A stretch of DNA of 64,000 nt, from the IMG/VR virus record IMGVR_UViG_3300005613_000060, positions 59-64,058 of that record; one strand, given 5' to 3'. The stretch's first letter is position 1. Every line of letters starts with the position of its first letter. Made by a program: the position numbers and the translations under genes. Under the pieces are notes generated by a model, which was given only the letters and a program-made list of their open reading frames with translations, was not told the origin of the DNA and searched no databases. The DNA comes from a virus (taxonomy: Duplodnaviria; Caudoviricetes). Positions 11,372 to 63,665 of this stretch are shown here, piece after piece.

Positions 11372-11375
11372 AACA

Positions 11376-17300: not shown

Positions 17301-17897
17301 ACCAAAGTCTCCTTGTAAAGCTTTATATAAACTTTTAGGACCTGCAACAAAACCTGTTGAAAACAATGGCCAAAAAGAATGAGTCATCATTCTTGAGAAA
17401 TCATCCCAACCAGAAGTGTTAGCATTATATATTGATTCATTATCTAATAAAGGTGAGAAACCAATTTTATCAAAAGTTTCTTGACCGTATGCATGATACC
17501 TATCATAAAAAGCATTACCGTGAGGACTTGCATCATATGAGTAAGGTTTAGAGTAAGCATTTGCATTTGCTGATATAGCATTACCTCTAGCTACTGTTTG
17601 AGTTGAAAGTGCTTCAAGTATTTCTTTAACGTTAATCTTAGCATTAGGATTATCAGCTTTTGCTGGTTGTCCTGGTTTTCCTACTACATTTTCTTTTGTA
17701 GATATAGTAGGATCAACGGCAGGCTGTCTGTTAAATACGGGTGAAGGAAAATTAATTTCAGGTTCAATAAACTTATCCCCCTCAAAAGGTTGCATATTAA
17801 TAGGGTCAGTACTTGGTAAATTAGTACTTCCTGTAATAGGGCCTAATGGTTCTGTAGGATCTAAAAAACTTAAAGTATTATTATTTTCTTCAGCCAT
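11376..17897 (-). CDS. Large virion cargo/ejection protein with a PD-(D/E)xK (RecB-like) nuclease domain
   Basis: 2173 aa next to the vRNAP. Gly/Ala-rich hydrophobic N-terminal segments and long helical regions; motif VAGTADLVAVD...IIDIKTG...YTLQQAAY at ~13040-13190. Confidence 0.75.
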   Translation of the reverse strand: MAEENNNTLSFLDPTEPLGPITGSTNLPSTDPINMQPFEGDKFIEPEINFPSPVFNRQPAVDPTISTKENVVGKPGQPAKADNPNAKINVKEILEALSTQTVARGNAISANANAYSKPYSYDASPHGNAFYDRYHAYGQETFDKIGFSPLLDNESIYNANTSGWDDFSRMMTHSFWPLFSTGFVAGPKSLYKALQGDFGSDTDDAEIYERAAAIGQSSKEGFGSFMSNAFMNFGYTAGIVVESILEMGAAALLTAPTGGSSLVAEGALLGNKVKMLGQGLSGLSKLKNATTANQFRKSLQSLKSADNARKFYNFTKAEKTFNSPLGKFINPLSNTTETFFDIAKNSKNLTGLAKGKQMFGSFYQDIVTVNAALSESRLEGGMVENSVYRELYNDFYKENGFAPDNDKQKEFRLKAKDAGIAALTFNMPIILGSNKLVFDNVFGGKGGLNRLFGNKMKEVLDLKTGKLIKTYTKKTVGKKTLKVPTAEYVQNNLKNTIKNFAKQPLKKSAVGAITYFKANVLEGLQENAQEAIAMGTEKYYIESFKNPALATSEFAKAMAMEGIESQFTKQGFETFASGFVMGAFAGPLNRAPVLGSMAYKRFSDPAAYQKYKDAKANYGNRLADRMNAVDIKDFWESRIFNYGSQATISNEIKKQTSEETESILKENAFVDGVTTALEHDTMDIYYEQMNAYKDLTQEEFEEAMNLEPGEGANYLQKIETAIDNAKSIESKWKEAKERFPDPIDFTKTSSYDKDSSEYEKSILLENAWKIARRNYVFFNQAFENTRKEMINIIDSVTSIPEIKDLNAQDVRVLFEDNLLLNQINILETEVESLEGLDKIPDKKDYEFKKKQITALRDLQSAIASFKNVKKNKSEVKAQIKIQLGLTETEYTEEELEEAAEEIYKMNKSFISPASIELEKAFKSYIQMLADKSGTYTFDENLDKAFKNFSKYFELSKESRDLAEGINILHDPNEYMEHVERNMEWMKALYENRRSYYTEMVRKGFEDVEDNEILNWLASQNIYVSIDQFENWKNNGEIPVEFYDDTKKAVIREGHHQYNDYAVIFYRAQLVRSKKEDVVDKVYQDKIDALIKQRDAEINALDKVEKRIDKDQIEPKRLAKTFNINRVDQKSFPEQYIELTIERKDGDEVITLYKDKEGNLRYDDENGELFDMKSKEKFKSGQTYVKDFVPDPVKAEEITKEYAERISKLKAEAKAEEKKAGIVKTITKDTPISDMPTELAVAIQDAYLNEQIRLGLPADQEPTDEQLTSFIKTNRVAADLINDYNAQQELKNAVSDPTYDPELIVKGETKKASDFTEAELIKMKRTLAGKLKVAEEKKDKTNEDIVEINRMQSTINSIDAYLKNLDLSQMTPEQKKTVSILEALLAKQKEEIKTPKETGLGSYMIDDVLLQRVTNATKDIKYEKYDYKFMADAISIYNDTVKNNKATGEEIANMVSQFKKKRPQGFSEASFVGLETYLNKRKDNLTVEILEVAINEFQNKETTDAGDYIDFAVRTIFAGGEVKFDPKKITEEAYEELFGEEGSITNIVKQVKDNGLVIISDELILYDKEAKVAGTADLVAVDRTGKVFIIDIKTGKKDKWSKFSTHPSREAYTLQQAAYRNLLYNMTGMVSSISVFPIEVNDVVKDGKITKGTLPKYSGLLIPGTNRIKLNVTDSFHKDGPLKGQTVQELVETIIPLKEKPGQPTPQAQPTMQVGKQLSDAMMNKLNRIGLEEPVIKLMTDEEIDFVRTTLDETELSNFANSMIEKYGEVVADEKVSEPGEQSSLSFDSEVVKEIESSKNEIDEIINSRIEKYGIPTYDLFEGMSDSNFRVINRAMEGLPVDIFALREAIDYLYNVYNEASRIKKDSALRMKNNLTIAYIEAVQEQLEKDLNYLIDYETAYKAGETLPTFKYSAESAASEVETPTEEGSPKRDAETSSRKEKQVKEKVTKAPAKAPTTPVTEEEQFEEEVKGTLSFKPTLKPTAEETTKRFNDYISKIQAVTKLGDLETLSQEIKENIDEFSPEQVNELREAYKLQKSKVEEVVKADDTNVNKGNEFIVQKIITKGNELFAGVGETVKVIETNKNNVKLQNSEGETLSLTIQELNSFATFKTNMGKKAEQKVQKLDAQDKQSIDQTKDEVDNFLDTTDFKATDVDLTELTEDNTRNNILEDLDC

Positions 17898-35579: not shown

Positions 35580-36250
35580 TATCTATGAGGATTTTGACTA
35601 TCATCAGCTCCAGAATCATTAATCTTAAGAGTTAATGTAAGTTCGTTTAATACCATTTGTTCTATTTCTGCAAAAAGATATTCAGGAAAAGGAAACTGTT
35701 GATCTTGTTTAATTTTACATTGTGCTTCAGGCTCACATAAAAAATCACCAGTGTCTCCTTCAAAAATACCTTCTATTCTAATTGCATCCCAATCAACATT
35801 AGGAATGTATATATAACCGTTTAAATACCAAAAATAAACTTTTTTGTTATATTTAAAAGTGCTTGATTTACTTATAGAAGTATAAGTTTTAGATTCTGTT
35901 TTATACAATTTAATAGTACCATCAATAGAAGTTACTGCTCTTAATAAAGGACCATAAGTTCCTTCAAATGGTAAAGGTATTTTTTCTTGAGTTCTTTTAA
36001 AAGTACATCCTGAATATATTCCTGTACAACCGGCTTCTATTTTATCTACATCAATTAATTCTACAAAAGGTAAAGTAGTAATAAGACTGCTTAATCTCAT
36101 TAGCTTATTCTTATCACTTTCTCTTTTAAGTAAAGCTTTTCCAAACTTTACAATATTATAATAAATTTGACGGTCTGTAACAAAAGGATCTTCTTTTACA
36201 GCTTTCAAAGTATTACGTATTCTAGATACACTTTCACCTACAGTTGTCAT
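35579..36250 (-). CDS. Tail ring protein
   Basis: 223 aa; YFWYLNGYIYI...IEGIFE...FPFP pattern; gene order. Confidence 0.6.
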   Translation of the reverse strand: MTTVGESVSRIRNTLKAVKEDPFVTDRQIYYNIVKFGKALLKRESDKNKLMRLSSLITTLPFVELIDVDKIEAGCTGIYSGCTFKRTQEKIPLPFEGTYGPLLRAVTSIDGTIKLYKTESKTYTSISKSSTFKYNKKVYFWYLNGYIYIPNVDWDAIRIEGIFEGDTGDFLCEPEAQCKIKQDQQFPFPEYLFAEIEQMVLNELTLTLKINDSGADDSQNPHR

Positions 36251-36831
36251 ATTTCAAAATCTTTATAATTTTTACTATCTAATTCAGTTTTTTTAATTGC
36301 AAATTGTTTTCTTGATGTTTTTAAAAACTGCTCATTTATTTTTTTATGTGGGTCAACTCCATGATACATTGTCCATTTTTTTGGATATTCCTCAGACACT
36401 GCTCTTTTAAAATTTCTACAAGCAACAAAATTCCAACATTCTCTATTTTTATAATGATACTTTTCTGAGTAAGAAGAGTAAAATATTTTAGCTACATTAC
36501 CATCAGTTTCCCAATTTTTATTTTCAACACTTGTATTATATTCACTTGACGTTTTAAAATCAAAATTATATTTTTTTACATTCTTACATGAACCTATAAA
36601 AATATAACCTATACCATCTGGTAACTGAACACCATCTCTGTTTTCAATTACTTCTCCCCAGACTTCTTCATTAAAAAGCTTTACTATACTATGAAATTCT
36701 GATTTTGTAATATCTTTATATTTAGGATATTTTTTTCTAAATCTATTTAGTAAGTTTTCTGTTATTAATATTTTGCTTTTTTGTCTAAATCTTGGAGCTT
36801 TTACATCAGGTTTTTTATAACTTCTTTTCAT
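36247..36831 (-). CDS. IHF/HU-like DNA-binding protein of the crAss-like tail module
   Basis: Basic protein; IVKLFNEEV..EVIE..DGVQLPDGIGYIFI resembles the HU/IHF core; conserved position before ring genes. Confidence 0.6.
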   Translation of the reverse strand: MKRSYKKPDVKAPRFRQKSKILITENLLNRFRKKYPKYKDITKSEFHSIVKLFNEEVWGEVIENRDGVQLPDGIGYIFIGSCKNVKKYNFDFKTSSEYNTSVENKNWETDGNVAKIFYSSYSEKYHYKNRECWNFVACRNFKRAVSEEYPKKWTMYHGVDPHKKINEQFLKTSRKQFAIKKTELDSKNYKDFEI

Positions 36832-36888
36832 ATACTATACTATTTAATATAGTAAAATTAACTGAATTTTTCAAGTATTCCTAGTAAT

Positions 36889-36924
36889 AAAAACAAAACC
36901 CCTACTCTAAAGTAAGGGTTTGTT
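36889..36924 (-). terminator. Rho-independent terminator
   Basis: Minus strand AACAAACCCTTAC-TTTAGA-GTAGGGGTTTTGTTTTT: hairpin followed by a U-tract. Confidence 0.75.
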
Positions 36925-36970
36925 CTTGTTAGCCGTAGAAAAACCAACAAACCACGACATATTTTTATGT
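36889..36970 (-). ncRNA. Candidate ~80-nt small RNA (hairpin with anti-leader loop plus terminator)
   Basis: GUCGUGG-UUUGUUGGUUUUU-CUACGGC stem-loop at 36932-36958 with two G-U pairs; upstream GATATTTG box (36975-36982); downstream terminator. Confidence 0.45.
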
Positions 36971-36986
36971 CTAGCAAATATCTTTT

Positions 36987-37877
36987 TTATAACTCTTCTA
37001 CTAAAATTTGTGCCTTTAGTAATCTACCTGCAGAACCTGCTTTACTTTTGAATTTTAAAGAAACAAATTCTCCAGGTTGTAATGTAACTACTTTAAAAAA
37101 CGCAGTATTTTTAGGTTTTTTATTATTAGTAAATCTGACATCAACAGGATGGTCTAAAAGTGCGGTTCTTACTGTATCCGCTGTAAGACCTGATATAATA
37201 GTATTATTATTAGTATCCCATAGATAAATTTCTATATCTGTATTACCTAGAGTTTCATATTGAACAGTATCAACTACACCCACTGTTGTAACAATTGCAC
37301 CATCTACAACATTTTCTAAAAATATTTCTGGATTACCAACAACTTCAGGAATGTCTGTATTGTAAGAAACATGTACTTTAAATGTAGCAGGGTTTAGATA
37401 AGTATTTTGAAAAGTTAATATTTCATAACCTGTTGGAAAAAAATAATTATCGGGACCAGGTGAAGGAGCCCCAGGAACTATATCAATATCACTTATAAAC
37501 TCTTCATAAAAAAATATTTTACTCGGTTGAGAAACTGTATAGGTTGTTGTTGAACCTACAGTAACAGAGTTTACATTAATATTATCACCACCGATAACAA
37601 TAGACTGACCTGTGTTAGCAACAGCATCACAAAAGTATTGGACTATTGATAATAAAGCATCTTGTACTGTATCTCCTGTTTCTACAACTGTATCAGGATC
37701 ACAGATAATACTATCACCATTATAGATTATACATTGGCTATCAAATACTTCTGAGCAAGGTTGTAACTCAGGACACGGATCAGGTGTTGGACAAGGATCC
37801 GGTGTAGTTAAATAATCAGTTTTACAACCGCAATTTAAACTACTACACTTACTTTTATGTGAATTACTATAATACAT
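36987..37877 (-). CDS. Cys-rich fibre/appendage-like structural protein (paralog of 37889-39247)
   Basis: Shares CIIYNG...GDTV.D and the C-terminal domain (FP.GY..L...VDGAI.TT.G..DT.QYET.G...KN.A.F...VS.KFK...AQ) with the adjacent gene. Confidence 0.55.
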   Translation of the reverse strand: MYYSNSHKSKCSSLNCGCKTDYLTTPDPCPTPDPCPELQPCSEVFDSQCIIYNGDSIICDPDTVVETGDTVQDALLSIVQYFCDAVANTGQSIVIGGDNINVNSVTVGSTTTYTVSQPSKIFFYEEFISDIDIVPGAPSPGPDNYFFPTGYEILTFQNTYLNPATFKVHVSYNTDIPEVVGNPEIFLENVVDGAIVTTVGVVDTVQYETLGNTDIEIYLWDTNNNTIISGLTADTVRTALLDHPVDVRFTNNKKPKNTAFFKVVTLQPGEFVSLKFKSKAGSAGRLLKAQILVEEL

Positions 37878-37888
37878 AGTTAGTTAAT

Positions 37889-39247
37889 TTATATTTCTTT
37901 TACATATAATTGAGCTCTATTTAAGAATCCTGTAGCAGCACTAGCATCAGTCTTAAATTTTACAGATACAGAATCACCCGCTGGTAAAGTTCCTCTCCAA
38001 AATAAAGCAGAATTTTTAATCATATTTACTTGTATATTATCTCCAGGAATACCTCCACCAGCAAGAGACATTACAATAGAACTTCTTCCACCAAAAGTTT
38101 CATATTGTATTGTATCTGCCCCACCAGAAGTAGTTATAATAGCTCCATCTACCCAATCGGAATAAGCAGCTGAAGGAATGAGATCAGCTTTACCTGAATC
38201 AAAAGCAGCATGTACTTCAATTTCAATATCGCTACCTGTTATATTTAAATATGATAAAGTACCATAACCAGCAGGGAAATGATATAAAGTTGGTGAAGGA
38301 CTTGTTTTTATATCTACCGCACCTGTTGCATTAAGATATTGGTTAACCCCTGGTACAGGAGGAGCTACGTTAACAGTAAATGTTGTTAGACCTGCAACAT
38401 TAGCTGAAGACACTGTAATCCCTGAACCAGCAACTACATCATATTCTCTTGCTCTTAGATCACATAAAGCTATCCATAAGTTTCTAATTACATCAGCAAT
38501 TGTAGTACCTGTGTTATAAGTTGGATATGAAACAACCATTGTTGCTCCAGGATTTGCTATTGAAGGATCTGTAGGAGCAATACATTGAGCAGAAATAGCT
38601 GTTATTAAACTGCCATTGCTACCTAGTGTTGTACTTATTGGACACCATACAGCATTAATAAATTCTTCAAGGATTTCATCTATATCTTCAGTACTGCCTG
38701 AAATAAGAGAACCTATATTACAACCAATTGTAAATTGTGGTAATACAAATACTGGAGCAGGTGCTGTTTCTAAAGCCGTTACTCTACCATCTAAACTAGT
38801 AATTGAATCATTAATTACTGATAACTCATCAAGTATACTACAAATTTGTTCTCCTAAGTATACAGCATAATCAGTAACTAGCATTTGAGTTGTTATACCA
38901 AAACATTCTGCTGGTGTAACAAATAAATTTACGTCACCCGGTGTTGAAGGTGTATCAGGAGTAACTGGTGTTACATCACAACAACTACATATTTTTTCAA
39001 TTAATGCTTGTATTAACTCATCAAAAGTTTTAGGTGGACACCCATTTAAAGATAAACATGCTAAATCATAATTATCTACATTTAATGTATCTAATATTGC
39101 ACAGAGTTCTGTTGCAAGTTTATATACAACATCTGTTACAGTATCCCCTCTACATAAACTTAAGCATGCAATGTCTGGACCATTCCATATAACACAGTTT
39201 GATGATGTGGGTGCACAAGGCGAATTATCTAAATTTAAAGGCTTCAT
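37889..39247 (-). CDS. Cys-rich fibre-like structural protein
   Basis: 452 aa; Cys-punctuated helical repeats, short coiled coil (SITSLDGRVTALE), beta-rich C-terminal domain. Confidence 0.55.
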   Translation of the reverse strand: MKPLNLDNSPCAPTSSNCVIWNGPDIACLSLCRGDTVTDVVYKLATELCAILDTLNVDNYDLACLSLNGCPPKTFDELIQALIEKICSCCDVTPVTPDTPSTPGDVNLFVTPAECFGITTQMLVTDYAVYLGEQICSILDELSVINDSITSLDGRVTALETAPAPVFVLPQFTIGCNIGSLISGSTEDIDEILEEFINAVWCPISTTLGSNGSLITAISAQCIAPTDPSIANPGATMVVSYPTYNTGTTIADVIRNLWIALCDLRAREYDVVAGSGITVSSANVAGLTTFTVNVAPPVPGVNQYLNATGAVDIKTSPSPTLYHFPAGYGTLSYLNITGSDIEIEVHAAFDSGKADLIPSAAYSDWVDGAIITTSGGADTIQYETFGGRSSIVMSLAGGGIPGDNIQVNMIKNSALFWRGTLPAGDSVSVKFKTDASAATGFLNRAQLYVKEI

Positions 39248-40811: not shown

Positions 40812-40934
40812 TTATTTTTTTAACTTAGTTTCATATGCAGCTATACATGCTGAACAACAAGACTTTCCATCAGAAGCTTTTCTTTTTTTACAGCTGCACC
40901 CTAAAACTTTTCCACAATTTGTACATTTACTCAT
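40812..40934 (-). CDS. 40-aa Cys-rich miniprotein (not in the ORF track)
   Basis: MSKCTNCGKVLGCSCKKRKASDGKSCCSACIAAYETKLKK*. Fills the intergenic gap, ends 2 nt before the next ATG, and has the AAAACCAA leader motif. Confidence 0.8.
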   Translation of the reverse strand: MSKCTNCGKVLGCSCKKRKASDGKSCCSACIAAYETKLKK

Positions 40935-40953
40935 CTTATTGGTTTTAAAATTT

Positions 40954-43272: not shown

Positions 43273-43728
43273 CTATTTAAGAAATAAAAGTTTATATTTA
43301 GCTTTGCTTATTGCATCTTTTATTAAATCCATATTATTTACTATTTCAGAATAAGGTACTTTACTTTGTACTAGAGTTACTTTTTTATAAAGCATTCTTA
43401 AATAGTTAATTGCATCCTCTACATCTTCCAAAACTTTTGGTTCAACTGGAGAACACTCTAAAATAGTTTCTTCAACACCTTGAAATCCTTCAACTATTGT
43501 ATCTACTAAACCGGGTAATGCATCATATAATTCATTTAAAGCTAAGTGTGCTGCAAAAGAACCTGCTCCTGTTACTTTTAAGTGAAGTAAATGAAACGAA
43601 GTTCTTGAAGCCATTAACTCTGCAGTTAAATATGATATGTCAGAAGATACTGACTCTGCACCGTTATAAATAGGAGTTATAGCTTTAGAAACAGTATCTA
43701 TTCTTTTTAACATTCTTGGTTTTTCCAT
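43273..43728 (-). CDS. Dps/ferritin-like protein
   Basis: HLLHLKVTG..SFAAHLALNELYD.L...VDTIVE matches the Dps-type ferroxidase helix pattern. Confidence 0.75.
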   Translation of the reverse strand: MEKPRMLKRIDTVSKAITPIYNGAESVSSDISYLTAELMASRTSFHLLHLKVTGAGSFAAHLALNELYDALPGLVDTIVEGFQGVEETILECSPVEPKVLEDVEDAINYLRMLYKKVTLVQSKVPYSEIVNNMDLIKDAISKAKYKLLFLK

Positions 43729-45301: not shown

Positions 45302-46315
45302 TTAAGAGTTCCAGTTGTTTTCAATCTTTTCATTTATTGCTTTGTAGATATCTTCATTTAGTGGATTTTTAAGATATTCTACAACATCAGATACATTTCT
45401 TCCTGTAAGAGTTCCAGTCTTCATATGGTAAATGTAACCATCTGCCTTAGTGACTAACTCTTTATAAAAGATTGCATCTTTAACTAAAGAACGAATTTTT
45501 AAATCTTCCATGCTAGAATTTACAGCATCAAGGAAACCTTTTGCTGCTCTTTCTTTGTTAGACTCTCCACCTTCTCCATTAATAAATTTATCCATATTGT
45601 CATATAGAACATCATTAGGAGTGTTCTTTTTATACTGTACGCTTGTAATGTCTACAACTTTTGCAACATAGAATAACTTAGCTGAGTTTTTATCAAATAA
45701 TTTTTGTAGTTCAGACAATGCTCTGTTACGCATTTTTTTGTATTCAGTTCTAGAAGATATTGTTTCTTCTTCTTTATCTAAGTAAAACTTTGGTGGTTTT
45801 GGTTTTGTTTTTGCATCTTCATAACTTTTTGCTACAATATCAAATCCACCAGCTTCAATTGCATAAAATTTAATTCTATCATATGGATTAGCCATGTCTA
45901 AGTACACAGGAGAATTTCCACATTCAATAGTAATTTTATTCCAAAATTTTGCATTATTTGGCTTAAGTAATTCTACTTTACTCCAGAAGTCTTTATCTTC
46001 TACATCTAAAACATTTGAAGCTAGTTCTGTTTCTAAATCAGCTACTGCTGCTCTAATTTCTTTAATTCTAGCTTCTTTCATTTCTGTTGGTAGTTTTTTA
46101 ATTTCAGGAGCAAATTCATTTAATCCTGTAATGTATCTAACTACTCCATTATTTTCTAAACATGCTAATTGTTCAAAATGAACTACTCCATCATATAAAG
46201 CCATGTTGTATTCTTCTAAACCCATGTTTGCAACAGTTGCATCAACATAAGGTCTAATTGCAATTTTAGTTTTTTTCCCTGTAGGGACTTCAACTTTTGT
46301 GAACGCTGTACTCAT
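45302..46315 (-). CDS. Conserved capsid-module protein directly downstream of the MCP
   Basis: 337-aa ORF; position typical of the crAss-like capsid block. Confidence 0.55.
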   Translation of the reverse strand: MSTAFTKVEVPTGKKTKIAIRPYVDATVANMGLEEYNMALYDGVVHFEQLACLENNGVVRYITGLNEFAPEIKKLPTEMKEARIKEIRAAVADLETELASNVLDVEDKDFWSKVELLKPNNAKFWNKITIECGNSPVYLDMANPYDRIKFYAIEAGGFDIVAKSYEDAKTKPKPPKFYLDKEEETISSRTEYKKMRNRALSELQKLFDKNSAKLFYVAKVVDITSVQYKKNTPNDVLYDNMDKFINGEGGESNKERAAKGFLDAVNSSMEDLKIRSLVKDAIFYKELVTKADGYIYHMKTGTLTGRNVSDVVEYLKNPLNEDIYKAINEKIENNWNS

Positions 46316-46337
46316 TTTTTTTTGTTGGTTTTAAGTT

Positions 46338-46390: not shown

Positions 46391-48007
46391 TTAGAATGAA
46401 CCACCTGTTATTGGGTTACGCATAACAATTTTCAATACTTTAGTTGGGTCTTTTACCCATACTGCAGGCATTGTTTGTGACATCATTACACGGTATCCAT
46501 TAAATTGTCCAGAAGACTGGAATCCTTGTGTACGTCCCATGTAATCCATTGTACCATTCTGATACCACCATTTTAATTGATTATCCCAAGACAATTTCAA
46601 TAAGAAGATATTGTCATTAGTATTATCAGTAATATCAAAGATAATGAATGAATAAGATGATAATGGGTAACCATCAATAATTGGGTTCTCAATATCATTT
46701 GTATGAACATTATCAAATGCTGGATTCAATACAAACTTAACATTTGCTAAGAAAGGAATTACATATGAAGTATAAGCAAAACCAAAGTTCAAGTCCATAC
46801 CTCTACCAGTAATTGCACCGATATCAGCAGCTTGAATTACAAGACCTGAAGAAACAGCTTCTTGCTTAATAGCTTCATTTACAAGACGCATACCTGCCAT
46901 ACCTGTTTGTACAACTAATGAACGGTTTGGATCCGGACCTTCAAACTCAACTTTACCATTGAAGAAATTATAAATCTCTCCACGGAATAAATCTAATGTA
47001 AAGTTGTTTTTGTTGTATACTCTTTTATAAGAGTTATCAAGTTGTTTCCAAAGACCCACTGATAATCTAACATCATCTGGACCATCTTGACGAACTCTAC
47101 CCCCTTGTCCCCACATTAAGTAAGTCTCAATATCCTTAGCAATTTTTGTAAGGTGAGCAGCTTCCATTTGTGTAAGGAAAGTACGAGAAAGATCTCCATT
47201 ATCAAAAGCTTTTTTAACTTTATCTTTACCCATTACTTTAACCATATCTTCTAAAGAAGTAATAGAAGGATCTACTGAACGATCAAATGATCTCCAGATC
47301 TCAGTTACAGGTACAGTACCATCAGCATTCATTCCTCCTTTGATCATAAGATCAGCACGAGAAGATACTGAATAGTGTACGTGTGCTTCAGCACCACCTA
47401 CAAAGTTATAGAACTCACGGAAACCAGCACCTGTAGTAATATCAGAGAAACGCTCTCCATACTCCCCACGTGCAGAACCTTTACGGAAAAACTTAGTACC
47501 ATTTGCTAAGAAACGATTATCTAAGAAACGTGCATTACCATTGTTAACAAGAGTAACAGTGTAGATAAATCCATCACCAATTGGAAGAATATCTTCATCA
47601 GTAATGTAAAGTTCTACTCCATTATACTTATCATAAGTAATAATGTCACCATGACCAAATTCACGTCTGTTAAGTTTGATACGGAAAGTATTTCCATCAA
47701 CTCCCTTATTTTCATTAAGTGGTTCAATGTCCTCAACTACATAAGGTAAATCTTGTGACACTGGTGTTTGCCACTTATACTCTCCACGAGCATTGTCTAC
47801 GTTAATAACATTCTTACCTCCAAAGTTAGCCATTTGGTAAAGAGGCATTTCAACTCTTTGTGCCATAGCCCAAAGATCTACCGGACCCATATCCATAGGT
47901 TCTGCATCTTTCAACATGTTAACCAAGTGATAAGAATCTACGTGTGAGCTTGCTTGGTAAGCCGTATCCCGTAGAAAGATACCATTGTTTAAAACTGGTG
48001 TACTCAT
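46391..48007 (-). CDS. Major capsid protein (crAss-like, HK97 fold)
   Basis: 538 aa; order portal-scaffold-MCP; EYKW, LMWGQG, GLWKQL and VWVKDPTK motifs; strong codon bias; followed by a terminator. Confidence 0.85.
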   Translation of the reverse strand: MSTPVLNNGIFLRDTAYQASSHVDSYHLVNMLKDAEPMDMGPVDLWAMAQRVEMPLYQMANFGGKNVINVDNARGEYKWQTPVSQDLPYVVEDIEPLNENKGVDGNTFRIKLNRREFGHGDIITYDKYNGVELYITDEDILPIGDGFIYTVTLVNNGNARFLDNRFLANGTKFFRKGSARGEYGERFSDITTGAGFREFYNFVGGAEAHVHYSVSSRADLMIKGGMNADGTVPVTEIWRSFDRSVDPSITSLEDMVKVMGKDKVKKAFDNGDLSRTFLTQMEAAHLTKIAKDIETYLMWGQGGRVRQDGPDDVRLSVGLWKQLDNSYKRVYNKNNFTLDLFRGEIYNFFNGKVEFEGPDPNRSLVVQTGMAGMRLVNEAIKQEAVSSGLVIQAADIGAITGRGMDLNFGFAYTSYVIPFLANVKFVLNPAFDNVHTNDIENPIIDGYPLSSYSFIIFDITDNTNDNIFLLKLSWDNQLKWWYQNGTMDYMGRTQGFQSSGQFNGYRVMMSQTMPAVWVKDPTKVLKIVMRNPITGGSF

Positions 48008-48035: not shown

Positions 48036-49304
48036 TTATCTACTAAAGAAACCTTTAGTATTTCTTTTTATAGTTCTAGTTGGTTTTGTACTTTTATAAC
48101 TTGTTTCTTCCATATTAGTATTTAAAGAACTAGAATTTTGTTTACGTCCTTCTTCAGTTTTTAATTTTCTTACTGTTTGTTCAACAGCAGCTTTATTACC
48201 AATAGATTTAATTTTATCTTTATAACCATCCGGGTCTTGTAAAAGCCATAATGCTTCTGCAATTAAATCATGTCTTGGTTCTACAAACTGATACTTTTCC
48301 AACAAGTGTCCAAGCAGGTTTGTAGGTTTTCCTGATATAGAAGGATAATTTGGTTGAACTAAACCAGAATATAACATACTTTGTGTTTTCTTATCTAGTT
48401 TAAGACCCCCAAGTTCTCCTTGAACAAGAGTGTTATATACATTCTCTGTATAAACTTGAGCTGCTTCTGCTTGTTGTTGTTTTCTAGATTCTTGCTCAGC
48501 TAATTGTCTTGCAACAATTTGCTCTTGCATTCTATCAAGTTTTGGTTTAAACTGATTAGCTTTTTGTTCTAATCTATCTAAATCTTTCCAATCTTCTATT
48601 TCTTGCTCAATTTCTTCAGCTGTTCCAAAGTTTGTAGCATATAAATATTGTCTTGCAATTTCAGCTTGATCATTTTCATTAGCCGGATTTAAATCTCTTA
48701 CTTCTTCTACTTGAGATAAAGTTCTAAATAATCCTTTTAAATCTTGACCCCCGTCTGCAATATATTTAGCTGCTACCTGTAACTCTGGTGGTAAAGATTG
48801 AAAAAATTCTTGAGGAACTCTTTGTGCTACTTTAGATTCTCTATCTTGAAAATTTGCTTCAAATAATTCTCTAAAATCCGCAGCAGTATATTCTTCTATT
48901 GGTTTATCATCATCAAAAGGAATAAGAGATCCTTCATCAATCATTTTAGTTGCTAACTCAAATAAACCACTTTTATCAAGTTTTGGTCTACCCCCTTTAC
49001 CTTTAAACTCATTTTCTTCTTCTTCTGCAATCATTGAGTCTAACTCATTAATCACATCATCTGTAGATTCTGTAACATCTACAGGATTAGAAGAATTTTT
49101 GTTTAATGCTTCACTAGCATTCTCTTGTTCTTCAGTTTTGTCAATGAACGATGTATCAACTGTTTCTTTGGAAAATATAGAAGGTTTCTTTTCTTCTTTT
49201 GGAAGCATAACATTGTCTGCTCCTACTCCTCCAAAAATGTCATCAATGTTAATCTCAATTTCTTCTACCGTTGTAGAATCTTGTAACTTTTCTTCTTCTT
49301 GCAT
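48036..49304 (-). CDS. Probable capsid scaffolding/assembly protein
   Basis: 422 aa; acidic disordered N-terminus, coiled coil, basic tail; between portal and MCP. Confidence 0.65.
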   Translation of the reverse strand: MQEEEKLQDSTTVEEIEINIDDIFGGVGADNVMLPKEEKKPSIFSKETVDTSFIDKTEEQENASEALNKNSSNPVDVTESTDDVINELDSMIAEEEENEFKGKGGRPKLDKSGLFELATKMIDEGSLIPFDDDKPIEEYTAADFRELFEANFQDRESKVAQRVPQEFFQSLPPELQVAAKYIADGGQDLKGLFRTLSQVEEVRDLNPANENDQAEIARQYLYATNFGTAEEIEQEIEDWKDLDRLEQKANQFKPKLDRMQEQIVARQLAEQESRKQQQAEAAQVYTENVYNTLVQGELGGLKLDKKTQSMLYSGLVQPNYPSISGKPTNLLGHLLEKYQFVEPRHDLIAEALWLLQDPDGYKDKIKSIGNKAAVEQTVRKLKTEEGRKQNSSSLNTNMEETSYKSTKPTRTIKRNTKGFFSR

Positions 49305-49447
49305 AATATTGTTGGTTTTGTTATACTTTAATATACGTATTTATTTACACATAAACTTATTAAATTTAAAATTACTTATTTTTTATTAAGTAATTTTCTG
49401 CAGTATATAGCTAAATAAATAATATTAACTTTAACGATTATTTATTA

Positions 49448-52186
49448 TTATTTTTTTTGTGAAGAGTCATATTTATTTTTATTTTCTCTAGCAATCTGTA
49501 ATTGTGTATTTGCAATATCTTTTTGAGCTTGTATTTTTTCTCTTTCTATTTGATTTTTTTCAGTTTTTAATTGATTATCAATAGATTGTTTTTGTCTTTG
49601 CATTTGAGTTTGTTCTTGATATTGTTCAGATTGACGAATCTGATCCATAGCATCTACATAGTCAGATTGTTTATTTTCATTTAAATCAACCATAGAACCA
49701 TATCCTGCAGCTCTAATTTCAGCAATAAGAATATCTTTTTGTCTATTCTTTTCATTTTCCATAGACTCATGATCAAGTTTCATTTTTTCTTCTTGTGCCT
49801 TAGCTTGCATTGCTTGTTCTTGCATTTGTTGTTGCTGTTGCATTTCTTGATTTCTTTGCTCTTCTATTTTTTGCTCAGCTGTTTTCATTACTGTATTTAA
49901 ATGAGCAAGTGAATCTGACTGAATAATTTTACCAAGATCATAAATACTAGCTCCTGTTGTATTATTACTAATAGCTAGTTGTTTTAATTGTTCAAGTACA
50001 GCTCTATTATTTGCAGTTGTTGAACAAAATATATTAAGATCTCTAAGTAATAAATCAGTACCTTCAATAGAAAAGTTTACTTTTTCATCTGCAGATGTTA
50101 TATAAGTTAATCTTGTAGAAGGATTATTACTATGATAATACTGTGCTAAGTCAGTTCTCATTTGATGAACTCTTGGCATTAAATAATCAGAATGTTGTAT
50201 AAAATATATTTCAGTTTGAGCATATGAAGCATTAAGAGCTTGTTCTACACCTGTTGCTGTTTGTTGACTAATTTGTTGACCCATTCTTTGAGGGTTAACA
50301 CCAATAACTTCATATGCTTGTTGTTTGAAATAATTAGCAAGTTGTATTCTAGACATTAATCTATTAGTTTGCTCCATGTCTAGTTTTTGAAAATGCTGGA
50401 AGTTTAATGGATTTTCTGTATTTGTTATAGTTGTGTCTAAAGGAAGTATTTGGAAGTTCTTCATTGCCGCATAAGCTTTAGCATAATTTCCTTTACCCCA
50501 ATCTTCTCCTAATGAATGTTTAGGTAACCCATTTTGATCAAGTAATATTACAGTACCTAATTCATCAACAAGAATATCAGCTATTTGATTATTTACAATA
50601 TTATATCCTATTTGAAAAGGTTTCATTAAATCTACAAGAGATGTAGACTTAGTATTTCTATCAGAAAAAATTGCACCCTCTACTGGTATTTTACAACCAT
50701 ATAAAGAGTTATCACCTTTAAATTGAAAACGTAATGGTCCAATATCTTTTTTGTCTATACCTAAATAAATTGGAGAAAATCCATCCGGTGAATTCATTCC
50801 CCAAAAACTAGGTAAGTTTGGACCAAGTTTAATACCACCCCAAACTTCATTAATCCAAATCCAATCAATATGCTCACCAAACACTAAATTATCTCTAGTT
50901 TTATTTTTAAATAATCTAGTATCATATTGTGGTTTATCTGTTATTGTATAATCTTCACTTATAATTTCTGTAATAACTTCACCATTATCATAAACTTTTG
51001 TTAGGTGTCCTACTTTTCTTTGAGACTTCCAATAAGCAACAGTCTCTCTAATTAGATAAGCTGTTCCCTCGTTTTCATAATCCTCACTTTCTCTAAGAAC
51101 ATCATTAATTACATCACCCCCTTCTAATATACTTTGTGAAGTTGCTGAAGTATATTGTCTCATTGCTAGAGAAGGCATATTAGTATTCCACTCATGTGAT
51201 TTAGTAGAATCATAATAACTACCGTCATTTTGATAACCACCCATTGTATATCCTGCAGATCTGATCGGATATATTGCTTCTAAAGCTTCAAGTTCATCAG
51301 CAGTCATAAGATAACCATATTTATCAATTGCATCTGCTACAGTTATCATTTCAGTTTTTCCAACCCAATTTGATTGAGAAATATATCTTGCATCAGGAGA
51401 CTTGTGATAAAATACTAAAGTAGGATTCCATAATTCAACTTCATAGTCATCTTCCATCATTCTAAAATGCCAAAATTCTCTATCTGTAATTAGCATGTCT
51501 CTAAAACCTCTTTCTTCTAGCTCATCTATTCTGAATCTTTCAACATCAACTTTATGCTGGTGATCTGCCCATTGTTCAATCATAGATCTATAATCCTTCT
51601 TAAAGAATTCTTCTATTTCTGGTAAGCTTTTAAGGTTTTCAGGATCTAGTTGTTGTTGAAATTCTTCACTGTTAGGATCAGCTCCTTGATTAACAAGTGC
51701 AGAAATTATTTCCATTTGTGCATCTGCAAGAAGAACTTCTTCAACCATAGCTCTCTTTTGCTCTAGCATTTCATTATAAGAAAAGTCATCTACAGCTCTA
51801 TATGTAACTCTAGTATTTCTTTTTGCAAATTCAGAAACAAGAACATTTACCACATTAGGGATAATAGGATAAAATTTTAATTCTAATGCTGTGTCATCTT
51901 CTTGTGTAAGATAATCTAGTATATCTCTATACTCAGGATTTTCTTCAACAATATAATCTCTTTTATCAATTACACCTTTTGCTAACTTATAATTTTTAAG
52001 AAGCTTTCTAGCATTTTTTCTAATTTGTTTTATACCATTCCATTCTAGCCAGTCTAAATTCCAAGCAGCCCACTCTTCATCTTTTTCTACAGCAGGTAAA
52101 AACTGTAAAGGTTGGATGATAGAACCCATCCTGTTTTCTTTTATTTTAGCTCCTTTTTTGAGCTGCATTGCATTATAAACTTGCAT
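49448..52186 (-). CDS. Portal protein
   Basis: 912 aa directly after TerL; FYPIIPNVVNVL, SLVDLMKPFQI.YN, GVNPQRMGQ....TATG; Gln-rich coiled-coil C-terminus. Confidence 0.88.
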   Translation of the reverse strand: MQVYNAMQLKKGAKIKENRMGSIIQPLQFLPAVEKDEEWAAWNLDWLEWNGIKQIRKNARKLLKNYKLAKGVIDKRDYIVEENPEYRDILDYLTQEDDTALELKFYPIIPNVVNVLVSEFAKRNTRVTYRAVDDFSYNEMLEQKRAMVEEVLLADAQMEIISALVNQGADPNSEEFQQQLDPENLKSLPEIEEFFKKDYRSMIEQWADHQHKVDVERFRIDELEERGFRDMLITDREFWHFRMMEDDYEVELWNPTLVFYHKSPDARYISQSNWVGKTEMITVADAIDKYGYLMTADELEALEAIYPIRSAGYTMGGYQNDGSYYDSTKSHEWNTNMPSLAMRQYTSATSQSILEGGDVINDVLRESEDYENEGTAYLIRETVAYWKSQRKVGHLTKVYDNGEVITEIISEDYTITDKPQYDTRLFKNKTRDNLVFGEHIDWIWINEVWGGIKLGPNLPSFWGMNSPDGFSPIYLGIDKKDIGPLRFQFKGDNSLYGCKIPVEGAIFSDRNTKSTSLVDLMKPFQIGYNIVNNQIADILVDELGTVILLDQNGLPKHSLGEDWGKGNYAKAYAAMKNFQILPLDTTITNTENPLNFQHFQKLDMEQTNRLMSRIQLANYFKQQAYEVIGVNPQRMGQQISQQTATGVEQALNASYAQTEIYFIQHSDYLMPRVHQMRTDLAQYYHSNNPSTRLTYITSADEKVNFSIEGTDLLLRDLNIFCSTTANNRAVLEQLKQLAISNNTTGASIYDLGKIIQSDSLAHLNTVMKTAEQKIEEQRNQEMQQQQQMQEQAMQAKAQEEKMKLDHESMENEKNRQKDILIAEIRAAGYGSMVDLNENKQSDYVDAMDQIRQSEQYQEQTQMQRQKQSIDNQLKTEKNQIEREKIQAQKDIANTQLQIARENKNKYDSSQKK

Positions 52187-52191
52187 AATGT

Positions 52192-54393
52192 TTATTTAAG
52201 ATTTTTAAACGCACTTTTAATAACCTTTTGTCCATTAACTTTTTTAGTTTTACCTAAATTACGAAACGGACTATTATATAATTTATATAAATTATCTGAC
52301 TTTTGCAACTTTTTAGCTGCATCATCTCTCTCAATTCTCTTTTTAAATCCTAAATTTGAGTGTAGTATTTTCATATAAGATACTAATGCAGCAAATGAAA
52401 CCAAACGGTCAACGTTTACACTATCATTATATGCAGCCATTTCTACTAATAACATAGTATCTGGTATTCTTTCCACACCGTATTTTTTTCTAACTACTGT
52501 TCCGTCAGGTTTAGTTTCTTGATCAATTTCCTCTTTTATATATTCTATTGCATATGAAAGCATATGATCTTTAAATAAACGTCCAGTGTTTTTCCACCCG
52601 TACTCTTGGTAAACATTTTTGTTTGCACCAAGGTCTTTTAAGAAAACCATTTGATCTTTTGGGACAAGGTACATTTGTTTATTCTTACTTATCATGTACT
52701 GAATAAATAAAGATATGTTGTTTTCTATAATAGTTTTAGCTCTATACCATTCTATTATATGCATTAACTGCTTATGTGTTTTATTTATGTCATCATATCT
52801 ACCACACCAAGCTGCTACAATTTTATCTCTTTCAACATATGTTTCTATATCTTCACCTTTCATTCTAGTAACTTCAACTGGAGCTTTCATTACATATATG
52901 GAACATAGTGATTCTGAAGTAGTTGTGCGGCCTTCACCCACGGGATCTATAGATGCATAATACATCCCAAACTCAACATTTTCAACAGGTCGTTCCCAAA
53001 CAATAATAGAACCAGTTTTATCTTCTGCTTTTTTACTTACTGGAAATTCTGATATTGGTAACTTATTTGTATTCTCAACTTTTATTTTACCATTAGCATC
53101 TTCACTTAATTTTACAAACTCATAAGGATATTCTTTCTGCTTTATTCTCTCTTGTTGTGCTGTTATAAGATGCATAGGAAATTTTGATACTGTTCTTGTG
53201 TCAAAAGCTTCTTTTATGTTTCTTGGATGCTGAGAGATCCTAAGTTGATATTGTTCAGGTGATAATGCTTTTTTCCATTCCGCAAATTGTTCATCTAAAG
53301 CAATTAAAGCTTCTTCTACCTTAGAGTTACCGTACTCGTCAATATATGGGGGCATTGACCATTGTTCAGGAATAAATAAACCTGACAAACCTAATGTTCC
53401 TTTATCATCAATAAGATTAGTTTCTACAGGATATATGTCATTGGATACGGGATCCGTAATCATGTCCTTTAAAGGTTCACATTGAGCAAGATCCCCTACA
53501 GAACCTGCAGCAATAAATAAACCAGTAGTAATCATACCAGACTTTAATGCGGGTCTAATATACTCATATGTCTTATCCATCTTTGGAGCAATACCAGCCT
53601 CTTCGTGGAAGAAGTATTTAACAGGACCCCCTACACCATTAGTTGGATCTTTTTCAAAGGACATACCTTGTATTGTACCTTTTAAACCTCTATCAAAACT
53701 TCTACCGTTTACTTTTTCTTCAATCTTTTGTTGCCACATCATAACCTTCATAGGATTAAAAGGTCTATACCATGCTGTGTGCTGATTTAAAAAGTTAGCA
53801 TACTCATCCAAGAATTTCCAAGTACCTTTATCATTTATATAGTCTTTAAGAGATGCTCCCATTTTAAGCGTAACACCTTCTTCAAACCAAACCTGGTTAA
53901 TTAATTTAGCAACGTGAAAATAAGAAGAAGCTATCTGTCTTTTTTTAAGAATAGCTACGTGCTTGTAATCTAGCTCTGCTAAAAGCTCATATAATGCCAT
54001 ATGATATTGAGCATCACGGGTTTTTGCAAAACCAAACTTTTGATTTTCTTTATCAAATATCGGTAAGAAGTTTAACCACATGTAATAGTCTCTAGAGACA
54101 AACCATGTTTTACCTTCAGACTTTACTATTATACCTTTTCTACATTTTTCTTTTTCAAAATTCCAATATTCTATAAAGTCTTTTGATTTAAAAGGTGCAT
54201 CACAGTAATAATCATTTTTATTAAAAAAAGTGCCTTGCTGATTAAAGATTAAACAATCTTTATTAAAGTTATACTTACCAGGTTCAAAGAATATACTTTT
54301 TATAAAAGTTTTAAATTCATCTCTTGAGTTAAAAGATGTAGTAGTCCAGTTATCTTTTTCATAGGTTGGTATATCTTGAATAAAGTCTTCCAT
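52192..54393 (-). CDS. terL: Terminase large subunit
   Basis: ILKKRQIASSY (deviant Walker A), FFHEEAG (Walker B), YASIDPV, IIENN and NVDR (RNase H-like nuclease). Confidence 0.92.
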   Translation of the reverse strand: MEDFIQDIPTYEKDNWTTTSFNSRDEFKTFIKSIFFEPGKYNFNKDCLIFNQQGTFFNKNDYYCDAPFKSKDFIEYWNFEKEKCRKGIIVKSEGKTWFVSRDYYMWLNFLPIFDKENQKFGFAKTRDAQYHMALYELLAELDYKHVAILKKRQIASSYFHVAKLINQVWFEEGVTLKMGASLKDYINDKGTWKFLDEYANFLNQHTAWYRPFNPMKVMMWQQKIEEKVNGRSFDRGLKGTIQGMSFEKDPTNGVGGPVKYFFHEEAGIAPKMDKTYEYIRPALKSGMITTGLFIAAGSVGDLAQCEPLKDMITDPVSNDIYPVETNLIDDKGTLGLSGLFIPEQWSMPPYIDEYGNSKVEEALIALDEQFAEWKKALSPEQYQLRISQHPRNIKEAFDTRTVSKFPMHLITAQQERIKQKEYPYEFVKLSEDANGKIKVENTNKLPISEFPVSKKAEDKTGSIIVWERPVENVEFGMYYASIDPVGEGRTTTSESLCSIYVMKAPVEVTRMKGEDIETYVERDKIVAAWCGRYDDINKTHKQLMHIIEWYRAKTIIENNISLFIQYMISKNKQMYLVPKDQMVFLKDLGANKNVYQEYGWKNTGRLFKDHMLSYAIEYIKEEIDQETKPDGTVVRKKYGVERIPDTMLLVEMAAYNDSVNVDRLVSFAALVSYMKILHSNLGFKKRIERDDAAKKLQKSDNLYKLYNSPFRNLGKTKKVNGQKVIKSAFKNLK

Positions 54394-57079: not shown

Positions 57080-57367
57080 TTATGATTTTTTAAGTTTTCT
57101 ACTAGAGTTAGTTTTAGGCTCTTCTTTTATTGGTTTAACTGGTGCTTTAAACTCTTCTTCATCTTCTTCTAACTCTTGACTTTGTTGTGCAAGCATAGCA
57201 AACTGCATTTGAATTTGAGTTCTTTTTAATCTTACTTCATCAATGTCTGCAAGAACTTTTTCATACTTGTACTGTGCATCTAAATAAGGCATTGATTCCT
57301 CATAAAATTGCATCATTTCTTTTTTCTTTTCCTCCATTTGTTCTGGAGTAAGTTGTTGGTTTTCCAT
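57080..57367 (-). CDS. Coiled-coil hypothetical protein
   Basis: 95-aa ORF downstream of a promoter-like element. Confidence 0.7.
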   Translation of the reverse strand: MENQQLTPEQMEEKKKEMMQFYEESMPYLDAQYKYEKVLADIDEVRLKRTQIQMQFAMLAQQSQELEEDEEEFKAPVKPIKEEPKTNSSRKLKKS

Positions 57368-63095: not shown

Positions 63096-63386
63096 CTACC
63101 AAATCATTAAAATATCTGCTTGATTAACAATCATTTTCTTTTTATCATTAACCACTATTACTTCTGCATGAGATAAAGCACTTACAAATACATAAACTTT
63201 ATCTCCTTCTTTTACATCATCAACTTCTGTACCTACAGCAAAAACATTAAGTTTGGTCCAAGATTTCATTAATTCTCTGTCTTGTGCTGCTTCAGATTCT
63301 GGTGTTAATTCAATTGTAGACTCTTTTTTTTCAGGTCTGTCTAGCATTACCTTTTTTCCTCTTAGTACTTTAAATCCTTTTTCCAT
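63096..63386 (-). CDS. GroES-like co-chaperonin
   Basis: KVML......STIEL...VFAVG.EV..VKEGDKV...IV.QADIL. Confidence 0.7.
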   Translation of the reverse strand: MEKGFKVLRGKKVMLDRPEKKESTIELTPESEAAQDRELMKSWTKLNVFAVGTEVDDVKEGDKVYVFVSALSHAEVIVVNDKKKMIVNQADILMIW

Positions 63387-63640
63387 TACTCTTCTGTAAA
63401 ATGTTTAGTATTAATTAATTTAATTACGTTTAAGTGAGCGTTTACTAATTCACCCACTGTATGATCAAACAACAAACTTTTTGTTGCAAATCTTGGATTG
63501 TTTTGATAGCTTTCTTTAAGTATCTCAGCTATCTCTATGAACTTAGCTGTAACTTTTTCAGCATCTGTTTCAGGATTATCAGTGTAATCCTCACCAATAA
63601 TTTGTTCACCAAATTTTGGTACACGTGATTCTTTTATCAT
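63386..63640 (-). CDS. Small helical protein, possible divergent Acb2/Tad1-like hairpin protein
   Basis: FGEQIIG.....P....EKV...F.EIAE.L...GELVNA.L.VIKL; resemblance judged by eye only. Confidence 0.35.
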   Translation of the reverse strand: MIKESRVPKFGEQIIGEDYTDNPETDAEKVTAKFIEIAEILKESYQNNPRFATKSLLFDHTVGELVNAHLNVIKLINTKHFTEE

Positions 63641-63665
63641 TTTTTTGGTTTTTACAAATATAATA

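Follow-up and report, generated by a model that had tools for sequence, protein, structure and literature searches.

A conserved hairpin before a phage terminator as a candidate antisense RNA for the leaders of head-assembly genes

A short hairpin that lies directly before an intrinsic terminator in a large environmental phage group carries a loop complementary to the leaders of a few head-assembly genes, and it probably controls the amount of protein made from them. The structure and synteny of the hairpin, the conservation of both loop and leaders, their complementarity, and one natural double change, in which a loop and its leaders differ together from the common type, were all observed in the compared genomes. 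As judged from these sequences, an antisense RNA at the 3′ end of a transcript that pairs with the leaders and tunes their translation is a fairly likely explanation. The first-pass annotation of this DNA had proposed a loop antisense to a start-site motif of assembly genes; the comparative data speak strongly for that part, and the promoter and the competing hairpin that came with it were found not to be conserved.

The hairpin and its complementary sites in the window

The DNA analysed was a 64-kb stretch (the window) with all of its genes and long open reading frames (ORFs) on the − strand. Comparison with PHROGs named a terminase (52192-54393), a portal protein (49448-52186) and a major head protein (46391-48007), with virion structural proteins encoded downstream of the major head protein gene. 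The hairpin (Table 1) lies in a 155-nt spacer between the gene for a 296-aa protein and that for a 194-aa protein (start at 36831). By capsid protein, the nearest named phages are all remote, namely Leptolyngbya phage Lbo-JY46 (28.5% identity), one crAss-like phage (23% identity) and Cellulophaga phages (partial matches), and the group is therefore called "distantly crAss-like" here. The stretch is present in metagenome runs with the labels marine, sediment, soil, lake and stromatolite. A DNA search of the region against GenBank phages gave no match, an ARAGORN search of the window found no tRNA or tmRNA, and the Rfam comparison that had been suggested as a check, run with the covariance models at gathering score on both strands of the 64-kb window, resulted in 0 matches. 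The 296-aa gene has few relatives, one of them at 64% identity in locus L001. Among the differences listed for three DNA runs (X1-X3), none falls within 36332-37031 except a 1-nt deletion at 36983, a listing that is not used as evidence of constraint. The metatranscriptome X20 holds a small share of the stretch, in contigs at 36480-36524, 37809-37959 and 38012-38158, and the hairpin is outside these. Two other parts of the window were noted in passing. After the structural genes, two giant ORFs at 2-17897 (− strand), one of 2173 aa and one of 3790 aa that is cut by the end of the window, resemble giant virion proteins of crAss-like phages, as does a protein of 1737 aa with matches to virion structural families of PHROGs. 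The 194-aa protein (36247-36831, − strand), whose gene always follows the hairpin, was assigned to no family; a weak atlas lead (0.86) connects it to clusters in which 27% of members have an HU/IHF-type DNA-binding domain.

Table 1. Positions in the window of the hairpin, its neighbouring elements and the sites complementary to its loop
Feature	Position	Strand	Sequence or size	Context or basis
Stop codon of 296-aa gene	36987-36989	−	TAA	
Candidate −7 box	36975-36982	−	GATATTTG	
Alternative hairpin	36956-36971	−	GACAUA-AAAA-UAUGUC	sequence
Hairpin	36932-36958	−	7 bp	sequence; homologues in relatives
Hairpin 5′ arm	36952-36958	−	GUCGUGG	
Hairpin loop	36939-36951	−	UUUGUUGGUUUUU, 13 nt	
Hairpin 3′ arm	36932-36938	−	CUACGGC	
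Linker box	36925-36932	−	CUAACAAG	between hairpin and terminator; alignments A1, A2
Intrinsic terminator	36889-36921	−	stem CCCUUACU/AGUAGGGG, then U-run	terminator scan
Promoter-like site of next gene (36247-36831)	36846-36874	−		downstream of terminator; marks unit end
Leader motif	46321-46332	−	AAAACCAACAAA, 12 nt	5 nt before ATG of post-capsid gene (45302-46315)
Leader motif	49309-49319	−	AAAACCAACAA, 11 nt	4 nt before ATG of 48036-49304
Leader motif	40936-40946	−	AAAACCAAUAA, one G-U	1 nt before ATG of 40-aa Cys-rich ORF (40812-40934)
Complementary site	63645-63653	−	AAAAACCAA, 9 nt	4 nt before ATG of 63386-63640
Complementary site	57353-57363	−	AAAACCAACAA, 11 nt	directly after ATG of 57080-57367
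Complementary site, sixth, found here	43716-43725	−	GAAAAACCAA, 10 nt	directly after ATG of 43273-43728 (DUF5856 protein)

In the window the hairpin begins 28 nt past the stop codon of the 296-aa gene, and its stem holds seven pairs, two of them G-U; it was present between stop codon and terminator on the coding strand just as first described. The sequence folds as this hairpin if the GACATA hairpin upstream (H1) is left out. The latter, proposed earlier as a competitor of the stem, overlaps the 5′ arm by 3 nt and is part of the minimum-energy fold of a longer stretch, and apart from the window it was seen in the closest relative (L082/L122/L213) alone. In the minimum-energy fold of a longer stretch of the window, including the upstream hairpin, the loop is not exposed but paired with the downstream linker box (7-8 pairs, several of them G-U), and RNAalifold chose the same loop-box pairing from a plain MAFFT alignment. 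The box is conserved in relatives as CURACARG, or as AACAA in the window's clade, and is either an internal partner of the loop, in which case it may mask the seed, or a second seed in its own right. A pseudoknot combining the hairpin stem with the loop-box pairing was rejected by our own geometric reasoning because no linker separates the 3′ arm from the box, which makes the two pairings alternatives.

The terminator (stem 36899-36918, T-run 36889-36898) was the only match of the terminator scan in 36600-37200 (36921-36896, − strand), against 0.2 expected, and is kept with compensatory changes in relatives, including a U-A to C-G change in L001. Upstream of the hairpin, the near-consensus −7 box reported earlier has a counterpart only in the closest relative (AATATTTG, L082) and is absent in more distant ones; the −7 box pattern TANNTTTG, with 97 occurrences in the window against 104 expected, shows no enrichment, and no conserved promoter was found upstream of the hairpin RNA. 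Beyond the terminator, the promoter-like site of the next gene carries a AAGTTTATTT...GTATATT motif that is conserved in relatives. As an observation apart from the hairpin, a conserved promoter-like motif, AAGTTTATTT followed after ~6-17 nt by GTATATTAAAGTA, is found in the window at 49320-49375 and 36846-36880 (− strand) and, in many relatives (L002-L081, L084-L087), upstream of the gene before the capsid gene and of the 194-aa gene; it may be the late promoter of the phage group.

All five start-region sites that had been listed as complementary to the loop exist in the window, and a sixth was found (Table 1). The 48036-49304 gene lies between the portal and capsid genes and is a "scaffold" gene by position only; Pfam and PHROGs gave no name to the target proteins, this one included. 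With at most one mismatch, AAAACCAACAA occurs 16 times in the window against 4.15 expected, a count reached in 0/100 shuffles. The motif had also been proposed for counting relative to start codons, and it is enriched there: matches of at least 9 nt to the loop complement were found in 5/49 start windows (−35 to +18, from crude ORF calls made here) and in 4/891 coding windows (Fisher p = 3e-5). Composition-matched permuted probes reached the observed count in 19/1000 cases at 9 nt and in 2/1000 at 10 nt. The complementarity at start regions is thus in excess of chance.

Conservation of the hairpin and of the leaders

Related loci were collected using the conserved 223-aa gene (p223) further downstream as an anchor, which gave 7 loci at first and then 80 by a profile-based scan of IMG/VR. 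The hairpin and terminator were found at the same place in all 77 of the IMG/VR loci with enough upstream sequence, which together hold 43 distinct hairpin-bearing segments. In 72/77 loci the hairpin is 600-800 nt before the 223-aa gene, and an extra gene intervenes in the other 5. The loop contains T[TA][GT]TTGGT in all 77 loci, with the core TTGTTGGT in 71, TAGTTGGT in 5 and TTTTTGGT in 1. The hairpin was also present in 10/10 long contigs from the capsid clade to which the window belongs, in phage G005 (27% capsid identity) and in the cultured Leptolyngbya phage Lbo-JY46, and one copy per genome was found in 9/9 assembled records. A pattern scan of IMG/VR resulted in 47 matches, of which 14 were hairpin-plus-terminator modules by eye, one of them (L113) from a phage with a capsid protein 27% identical; the other 33 were dropped as plain matches in G+C-rich DNA in which neither hairpin nor terminator was seen by eye.

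The stem was tested on 36 distinct sequences aligned by a covariance model built here, and this alignment, being fitted to the model, leans towards structure. Of the stem cells, 95.2% can pair, against 24-44% when the 3′ partners are slid; double changes occur in 3/7 stem pairs (16 cells), and 0/500 shuffles scored as high as the observed alignment. The argument that G-U pairs favour folding on the gene strand extends beyond the window, as 45/252 stem cells are G-U on that strand and the helix is therefore good only there. Outside the model count are stems such as ATCGTGG/CAACGAT, GTCTTGG/CCAAGAT and ATATAAA/TTTATAT, the last from Lbo-JY46; the stems that the model does not reach differ at almost every position and have an unchanged loop, and those of L113 and Lbo-JY46 are wholly different. 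L001 has the hairpin with a G-C to A-U change. What characterizes a structured RNA, a helix kept through compensatory changes across relatives, is found here along with an almost fixed loop core, and the stem covariation and loop and target conservation that had been suggested as checks were thus all observed.

In most relatives the hairpin is 5-20 nt past a stop codon and directly before the terminator, which fits a 3′-UTR element ending at a shared terminator. This is the position of a 3′-UTR-derived sRNA, between a stop codon and the mRNA's own terminator, and Lbo-JY46 is the exception to it. The closest relative, L082, has a different upstream coding sequence and the same hairpin, and the element is therefore not tied to one upstream gene. 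When L082 (1927-3300) was compared with the window (36987-37877), only the first 87 residues of the 296-aa gene were common to both; the hairpin and terminator of L082 are identical to those of the window save one base. Possibly the hairpin-terminator module lies where a variable tail gene has its recombination boundary.

The leaders were collected by a capsid-protein scan of IMG/VR, using the best 80 of at least 599 loci, and scored for a match of at least 9 nt to AAAAACCAACAAAC within 30 nt of the ATG. By this measure the leader motif AAACCAACAAA is present before the gene preceding the capsid gene in 79/79 orthologues and before the gene following it in 76/76, often in duplicate. The leader of the Cys-rich miniprotein has a match of at least 9 nt in 30/35 relatives and ACCAA in 35/35. 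The motif is absent from the leaders of the capsid gene (0/80), the portal gene (0/77) and the 180-aa gene (p180; 0/37), and start regions of the 57080-57367 orthologues match by at least 9 nt in 9/40 only. With or without a promoter nearby, the sites keep to 0-10 nt from the ATG. Directly upstream of the post-capsid gene is a terminator, and nothing promoter-like precedes the motif there; a role of the motif in the mRNA is therefore suggested by its fixed distance to the ATG. A conserved seed complementary to conserved start-region targets, as known for trans-acting sRNAs, is thus present in this group.

The Cys-rich miniprotein itself (~40-60 aa, with a CxxC ... CGC pattern) was seen at 40812-40934 in the window and in 37 related loci, where its gene directly follows the 180-aa gene, which ends in a Cys codon and a stop (TGT/TGC TAA) in 37/37 loci. 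Its leader mirrors the loop plus the linker box, and the covariance model matches that leader on the opposite strand. A second seed was considered from this likeness and rejected: the complement of the box, TTGTTAA, is the last Cys codon plus the stop of the 180-aa gene, and since it is coding in 37/37 loci a second seed cannot be inferred from it.

Lbo-JY46 (GenBank PP438436.1) is the cultured phage that carries the element. It was recorded on a cyanobacterium and is the nearest cultured relative; the host in the Bacteroidota that the first-pass annotation had assumed was its own deduction. The stem in Lbo-JY46 is all A-U, its capsid-flanking leader sequences differ from those of the window and do not contain the CC motif, and none of its start regions gave a perfect match as long as 9 nt. 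When its 163 start regions were ranked by duplex energy, the top two were those of the genes before and after the capsid gene, with 17 bp over −17 to +2 and 16 bp over −24 to −7; this pair would be the top two by chance with a probability of about 8e-5. The gene upstream of the element has its own terminator, followed by a spacer of ~250 nt before the hairpin, and a separate promoter would therefore be needed there. This terminator suggests an independent RNA gene. In PP438436.1 the element is at ~91.3-91.9 kb, in an unannotated spacer of ~400 nt between the terminator and a 55-aa gene. A literature search found no paper naming Lbo-JY46.

Loop-leader matching and its possible explanations

When the start regions of each phage were compared with the complement of its own loop, matches were enriched in G000 (Fisher p = 3e-5), G015 (9e-6), G003 (4e-8), G012 (5e-5) and G001 (2e-3), and enrichment was weak in G002, G004, G005 and G006. 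Composition-matched permuted probes at 9 nt reached the observed value in 19/1000 cases for G000 and 319/1000 for G001, which makes the signal moderate. In the assembled records, the longest perfect matches to the own-loop complement are in the leaders of the two capsid-flanking genes, measuring 12 and 11 nt in the window, 14 and 14 nt in G001, 13 and 12 nt in G003, 11 and 10 nt in G012, 11 and 9 nt in G015, 10 nt in G004, 9 nt in G002 and 9 nt in G005. Among further contigs with both sides known, the capsid-flanking leaders match the loop by 8-12 nt in 14/14, and often a leader matches the whole 11-nt loop.

The natural double change is found in G001, where the loop is UUUUUUGGUUUUU (G to U) and the leaders are AAAAACCAAAA(AA) (C to A) at the genes before and after the capsid gene, the miniprotein gene and an ORF of 57 aa, four in all. 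Against the G001 leaders, the loops of the other phages reach no match of 9 nt or more. The change is confined to a single lineage and therefore counts as one evolutionary event. Phages with the loop ...GGUUUAAA have leaders with (U)UAAACC where the window has AAAACC. In G006 the leaders are UAAAAACCAAA(G/U) and the loop is still the common UUUGUUGGUUU, leaving a match of 7-8 nt; these leaders would fit the loop of G001 better, and a search of G006 for a second hairpin fitting them found none. In the L250 group the loop is UUAGUUGGUUU and the leaders are unchanged, leaving a match of 8 nt. Two lineages have thus changed one side only and G001 both, and in terms of co-change G001, the GGUUUAAA/UUAAACC group and Lbo-JY46 fit and G006 and the L250 group do not. 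All clade members that have the CC motif share UUGGUUU and AAACCAA as complementary parts, and this stretch is as long as an ordinary seed; a full 11-bp pairing within the 13-nt loop would require an open stem. Duplex energies of the whole hairpin are dominated by G+C-rich stems, and the known leaders are not ranked first by them except in Lbo-JY46. Two unexplained features were noted in G004 (the record behind L088), at oriented coordinates ~2724 and ~9447: on the opposite strand, a spacer of the early region repeats 12 nt of the variant loop of this phage, and a AAACCAACAACCUCUC stretch (AAAAAACCAACAACCUCUC) stands just before another terminator, within which a start codon had been called wrongly.

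From these comparisons we infer the accumulation of an RNA, its pairing with the leaders and the direction of its effect. In the proposed mechanism, the hairpin would be the working part of an antisense RNA encoded by the phage. Transcription of the 3′ end of the tail-gene unit on the gene strand would yield this RNA, with its end at the intrinsic terminator, and it could act within the 3′ UTR of the mRNA or as a processed short RNA; in Lbo-JY46 it would need its own promoter. The RNA would display UUUGUUGGUUU, the invariant core of which, UUGGUUU, is predicted to pair with AAACCAACAAA, the leader rich in A and C that precedes the ATG by 0-10 nt, and its putative regulon would comprise the two capsid-flanking genes, the Cys-rich miniprotein and a few others. 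In hosts that start translation on unstructured A-rich leaders and use no Shine-Dalgarno sequence, a duplex of 8-14 bp at −4 to −16 should block the 30S subunit, and the likely effect would therefore be repression or titration once the late tail transcript builds up. According to PMC6847099 and PMC7797042, Shine-Dalgarno pairing plays no part for the ribosomes of Bacteroidia, where mRNA structure and certain nucleotides tune initiation; in a host of this kind a short leader duplex would therefore make an effective switch.

An explanation that we consider unlikely, while granting it some weight, is that the hairpin is a 3′-end element with another job, such as mRNA stability, termination or protein binding, and that the leaders are a separate signal with incidental complementarity. 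The loop is indeed fixed where the leaders changed (G006) and in Lbo-JY46, with its leaders lacking the CC motif; the hairpin always stands directly before a terminator; and U/G-rich loops and A/C-rich leaders match partly by composition. However, incidental matching would not be expected to place the best matches on the same two genes in distant phages, to change the G001 loop together with four leaders, to make the whole 11-nt loop an exact leader complement in many genomes, or to spare the capsid (0/80) and portal (0/77) leaders. It is less probable still that these phages have a start-site code of their own, made up of the hairpin RNA and the AAACCAACAAA leader, for hosts that ignore the Shine-Dalgarno sequence; in this code the RNA, as a trans-acting adaptor or a mimic of a leader-reading factor, would switch the head-assembly regulon on or off in an ancient and very large environmental lineage that includes a cultured member. 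Slightly further down in our estimate is the proposal that the RNA acts positively or by mimicry, as an adaptor bringing ribosomes or a factor to the leaders or as a decoy copying the motif of a host reader. This would account for a leader far more conserved than "unstructured and A-rich" requires and for the second conserved single-stranded box after the hairpin, and it would suit the absence of Shine-Dalgarno pairing from Bacteroidia ribosomes (PMC6847099, PMC7797042), but contact with the ribosome is purely hypothetical and a duplex adjoining the ATG normally blocks initiation.

We regard each of the remaining explanations as very improbable, in falling order. If AAACCAACAA/TTGTTGGTTT were a double-stranded DNA site of a phage regulator, the intergenic copy would be the same site in opposite orientation, and one inverted copy with several direct copies, as well as the concerted change in G001, would fit a protein whose specificity had drifted; yet the sites keep within 0-10 nt of the ATG regardless of promoter, the post-capsid gene comes directly after a terminator, and the inverted copy invariably forms the loop of a hairpin whose G-U-rich stem covaries, a feature for which a duplex-DNA site has no need. 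A micro-peptide (window ATG at 36959-36961, MSWFVGFSTANKNKPLL), with the loop kept as FVG codons, has even less to recommend it. By our own reading, an ATG or GTG stands directly before TC(A/G)..GG in the window, L082, L084, L086, L087, L088, L115, L118 and L134, but L001, L085, L089, L106, L113 and L129 have no start codon, the frame differs in L083 and stops come after 8 to ~50 codons; moreover, no leader motif lies upstream and the stem changes are compensatory at the RNA level. We give least credence to the motif copy on the + strand being the leader of a + strand ORF (36967-37227, 86 aa) antisense to the 296-aa gene. The motif does lie 16 nt before the ATG of this ORF, but there is no ATG there in L001 or in the common hairpin types of the clade, many + strand ORFs of 80-96 aa exist in the AT-rich window, and the G-U pairs of the stem become C-A mismatches on the + strand.

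Relation to known systems

Antisense control of translation by phage RNAs is known from P1 c4 and P4 CI, and to our knowledge regulatory RNAs of lytic phages have barely been described. A full-text literature search, supplements aside, found no such element described for crAss-like phages or this lineage; in PMC8375218 the search terms occur in the reference list only. If the antisense reading is true, both the seed and the regulon of a virus-wide RNA regulator would be defined here, and nature would already have supplied a compensatory mutant of it. The way in which phages balance their head proteins in hosts where translation control is not based on the Shine-Dalgarno sequence would become visible, and so would the reason for the strict conservation of a short leader across hundreds of divergent genomes. 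A direct test is feasible, as the seed-leader pair is short and a cultured relative carries the element.

The c4 RNA of phages P1 and P7 is a processed antisense RNA, the exposed loops of which pair at a ribosome-binding region and shut off translation. The candidate described here likewise would be a phage-encoded RNA with a loop that pairs with short sites elsewhere in the phage transcripts. However, the target of c4 is a single immunity operon (icd/ant) in a temperate phage, whereas here several structural-gene leaders share one motif, the phages that carry the element are apparently lytic and distantly crAss-like, and there is no sequence or Rfam relation. The CI RNA of the satellite phage P4 is also a stem-loop, cut out of a longer transcript, with a loop complementary to repeated phage RNA sites, but it acts by premature transcription termination in an immunity circuit, in contrast to the candidate control at start codons of assembly genes. 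Position and proposed action resemble those of the 3′-UTR-derived bacterial sRNAs CpxQ, DapZ and SroC, in which a seed just after a stop codon, the intrinsic terminator of the mRNA and action in trans on start regions are combined. These RNAs are cellular, usually Hfq-dependent and have single-stranded seeds, whereas the element here is viral and its seed is in a hairpin loop; in Lbo-JY46 it differs further in having a terminator upstream of it, which suggests an independent gene. RegA of phage T4 offers a functional likeness, as one phage factor that lowers the translation of many mRNAs via a short A-rich start-region motif, but RegA is a protein and the candidate factor is an RNA with recognition by base pairing. 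Lastly, the YUNR U-turn is found in the loops of many fast-pairing antisense RNAs, and the loop described here contains UUUG and UUGG, both of which fit YUNR in a pattern match by eye.
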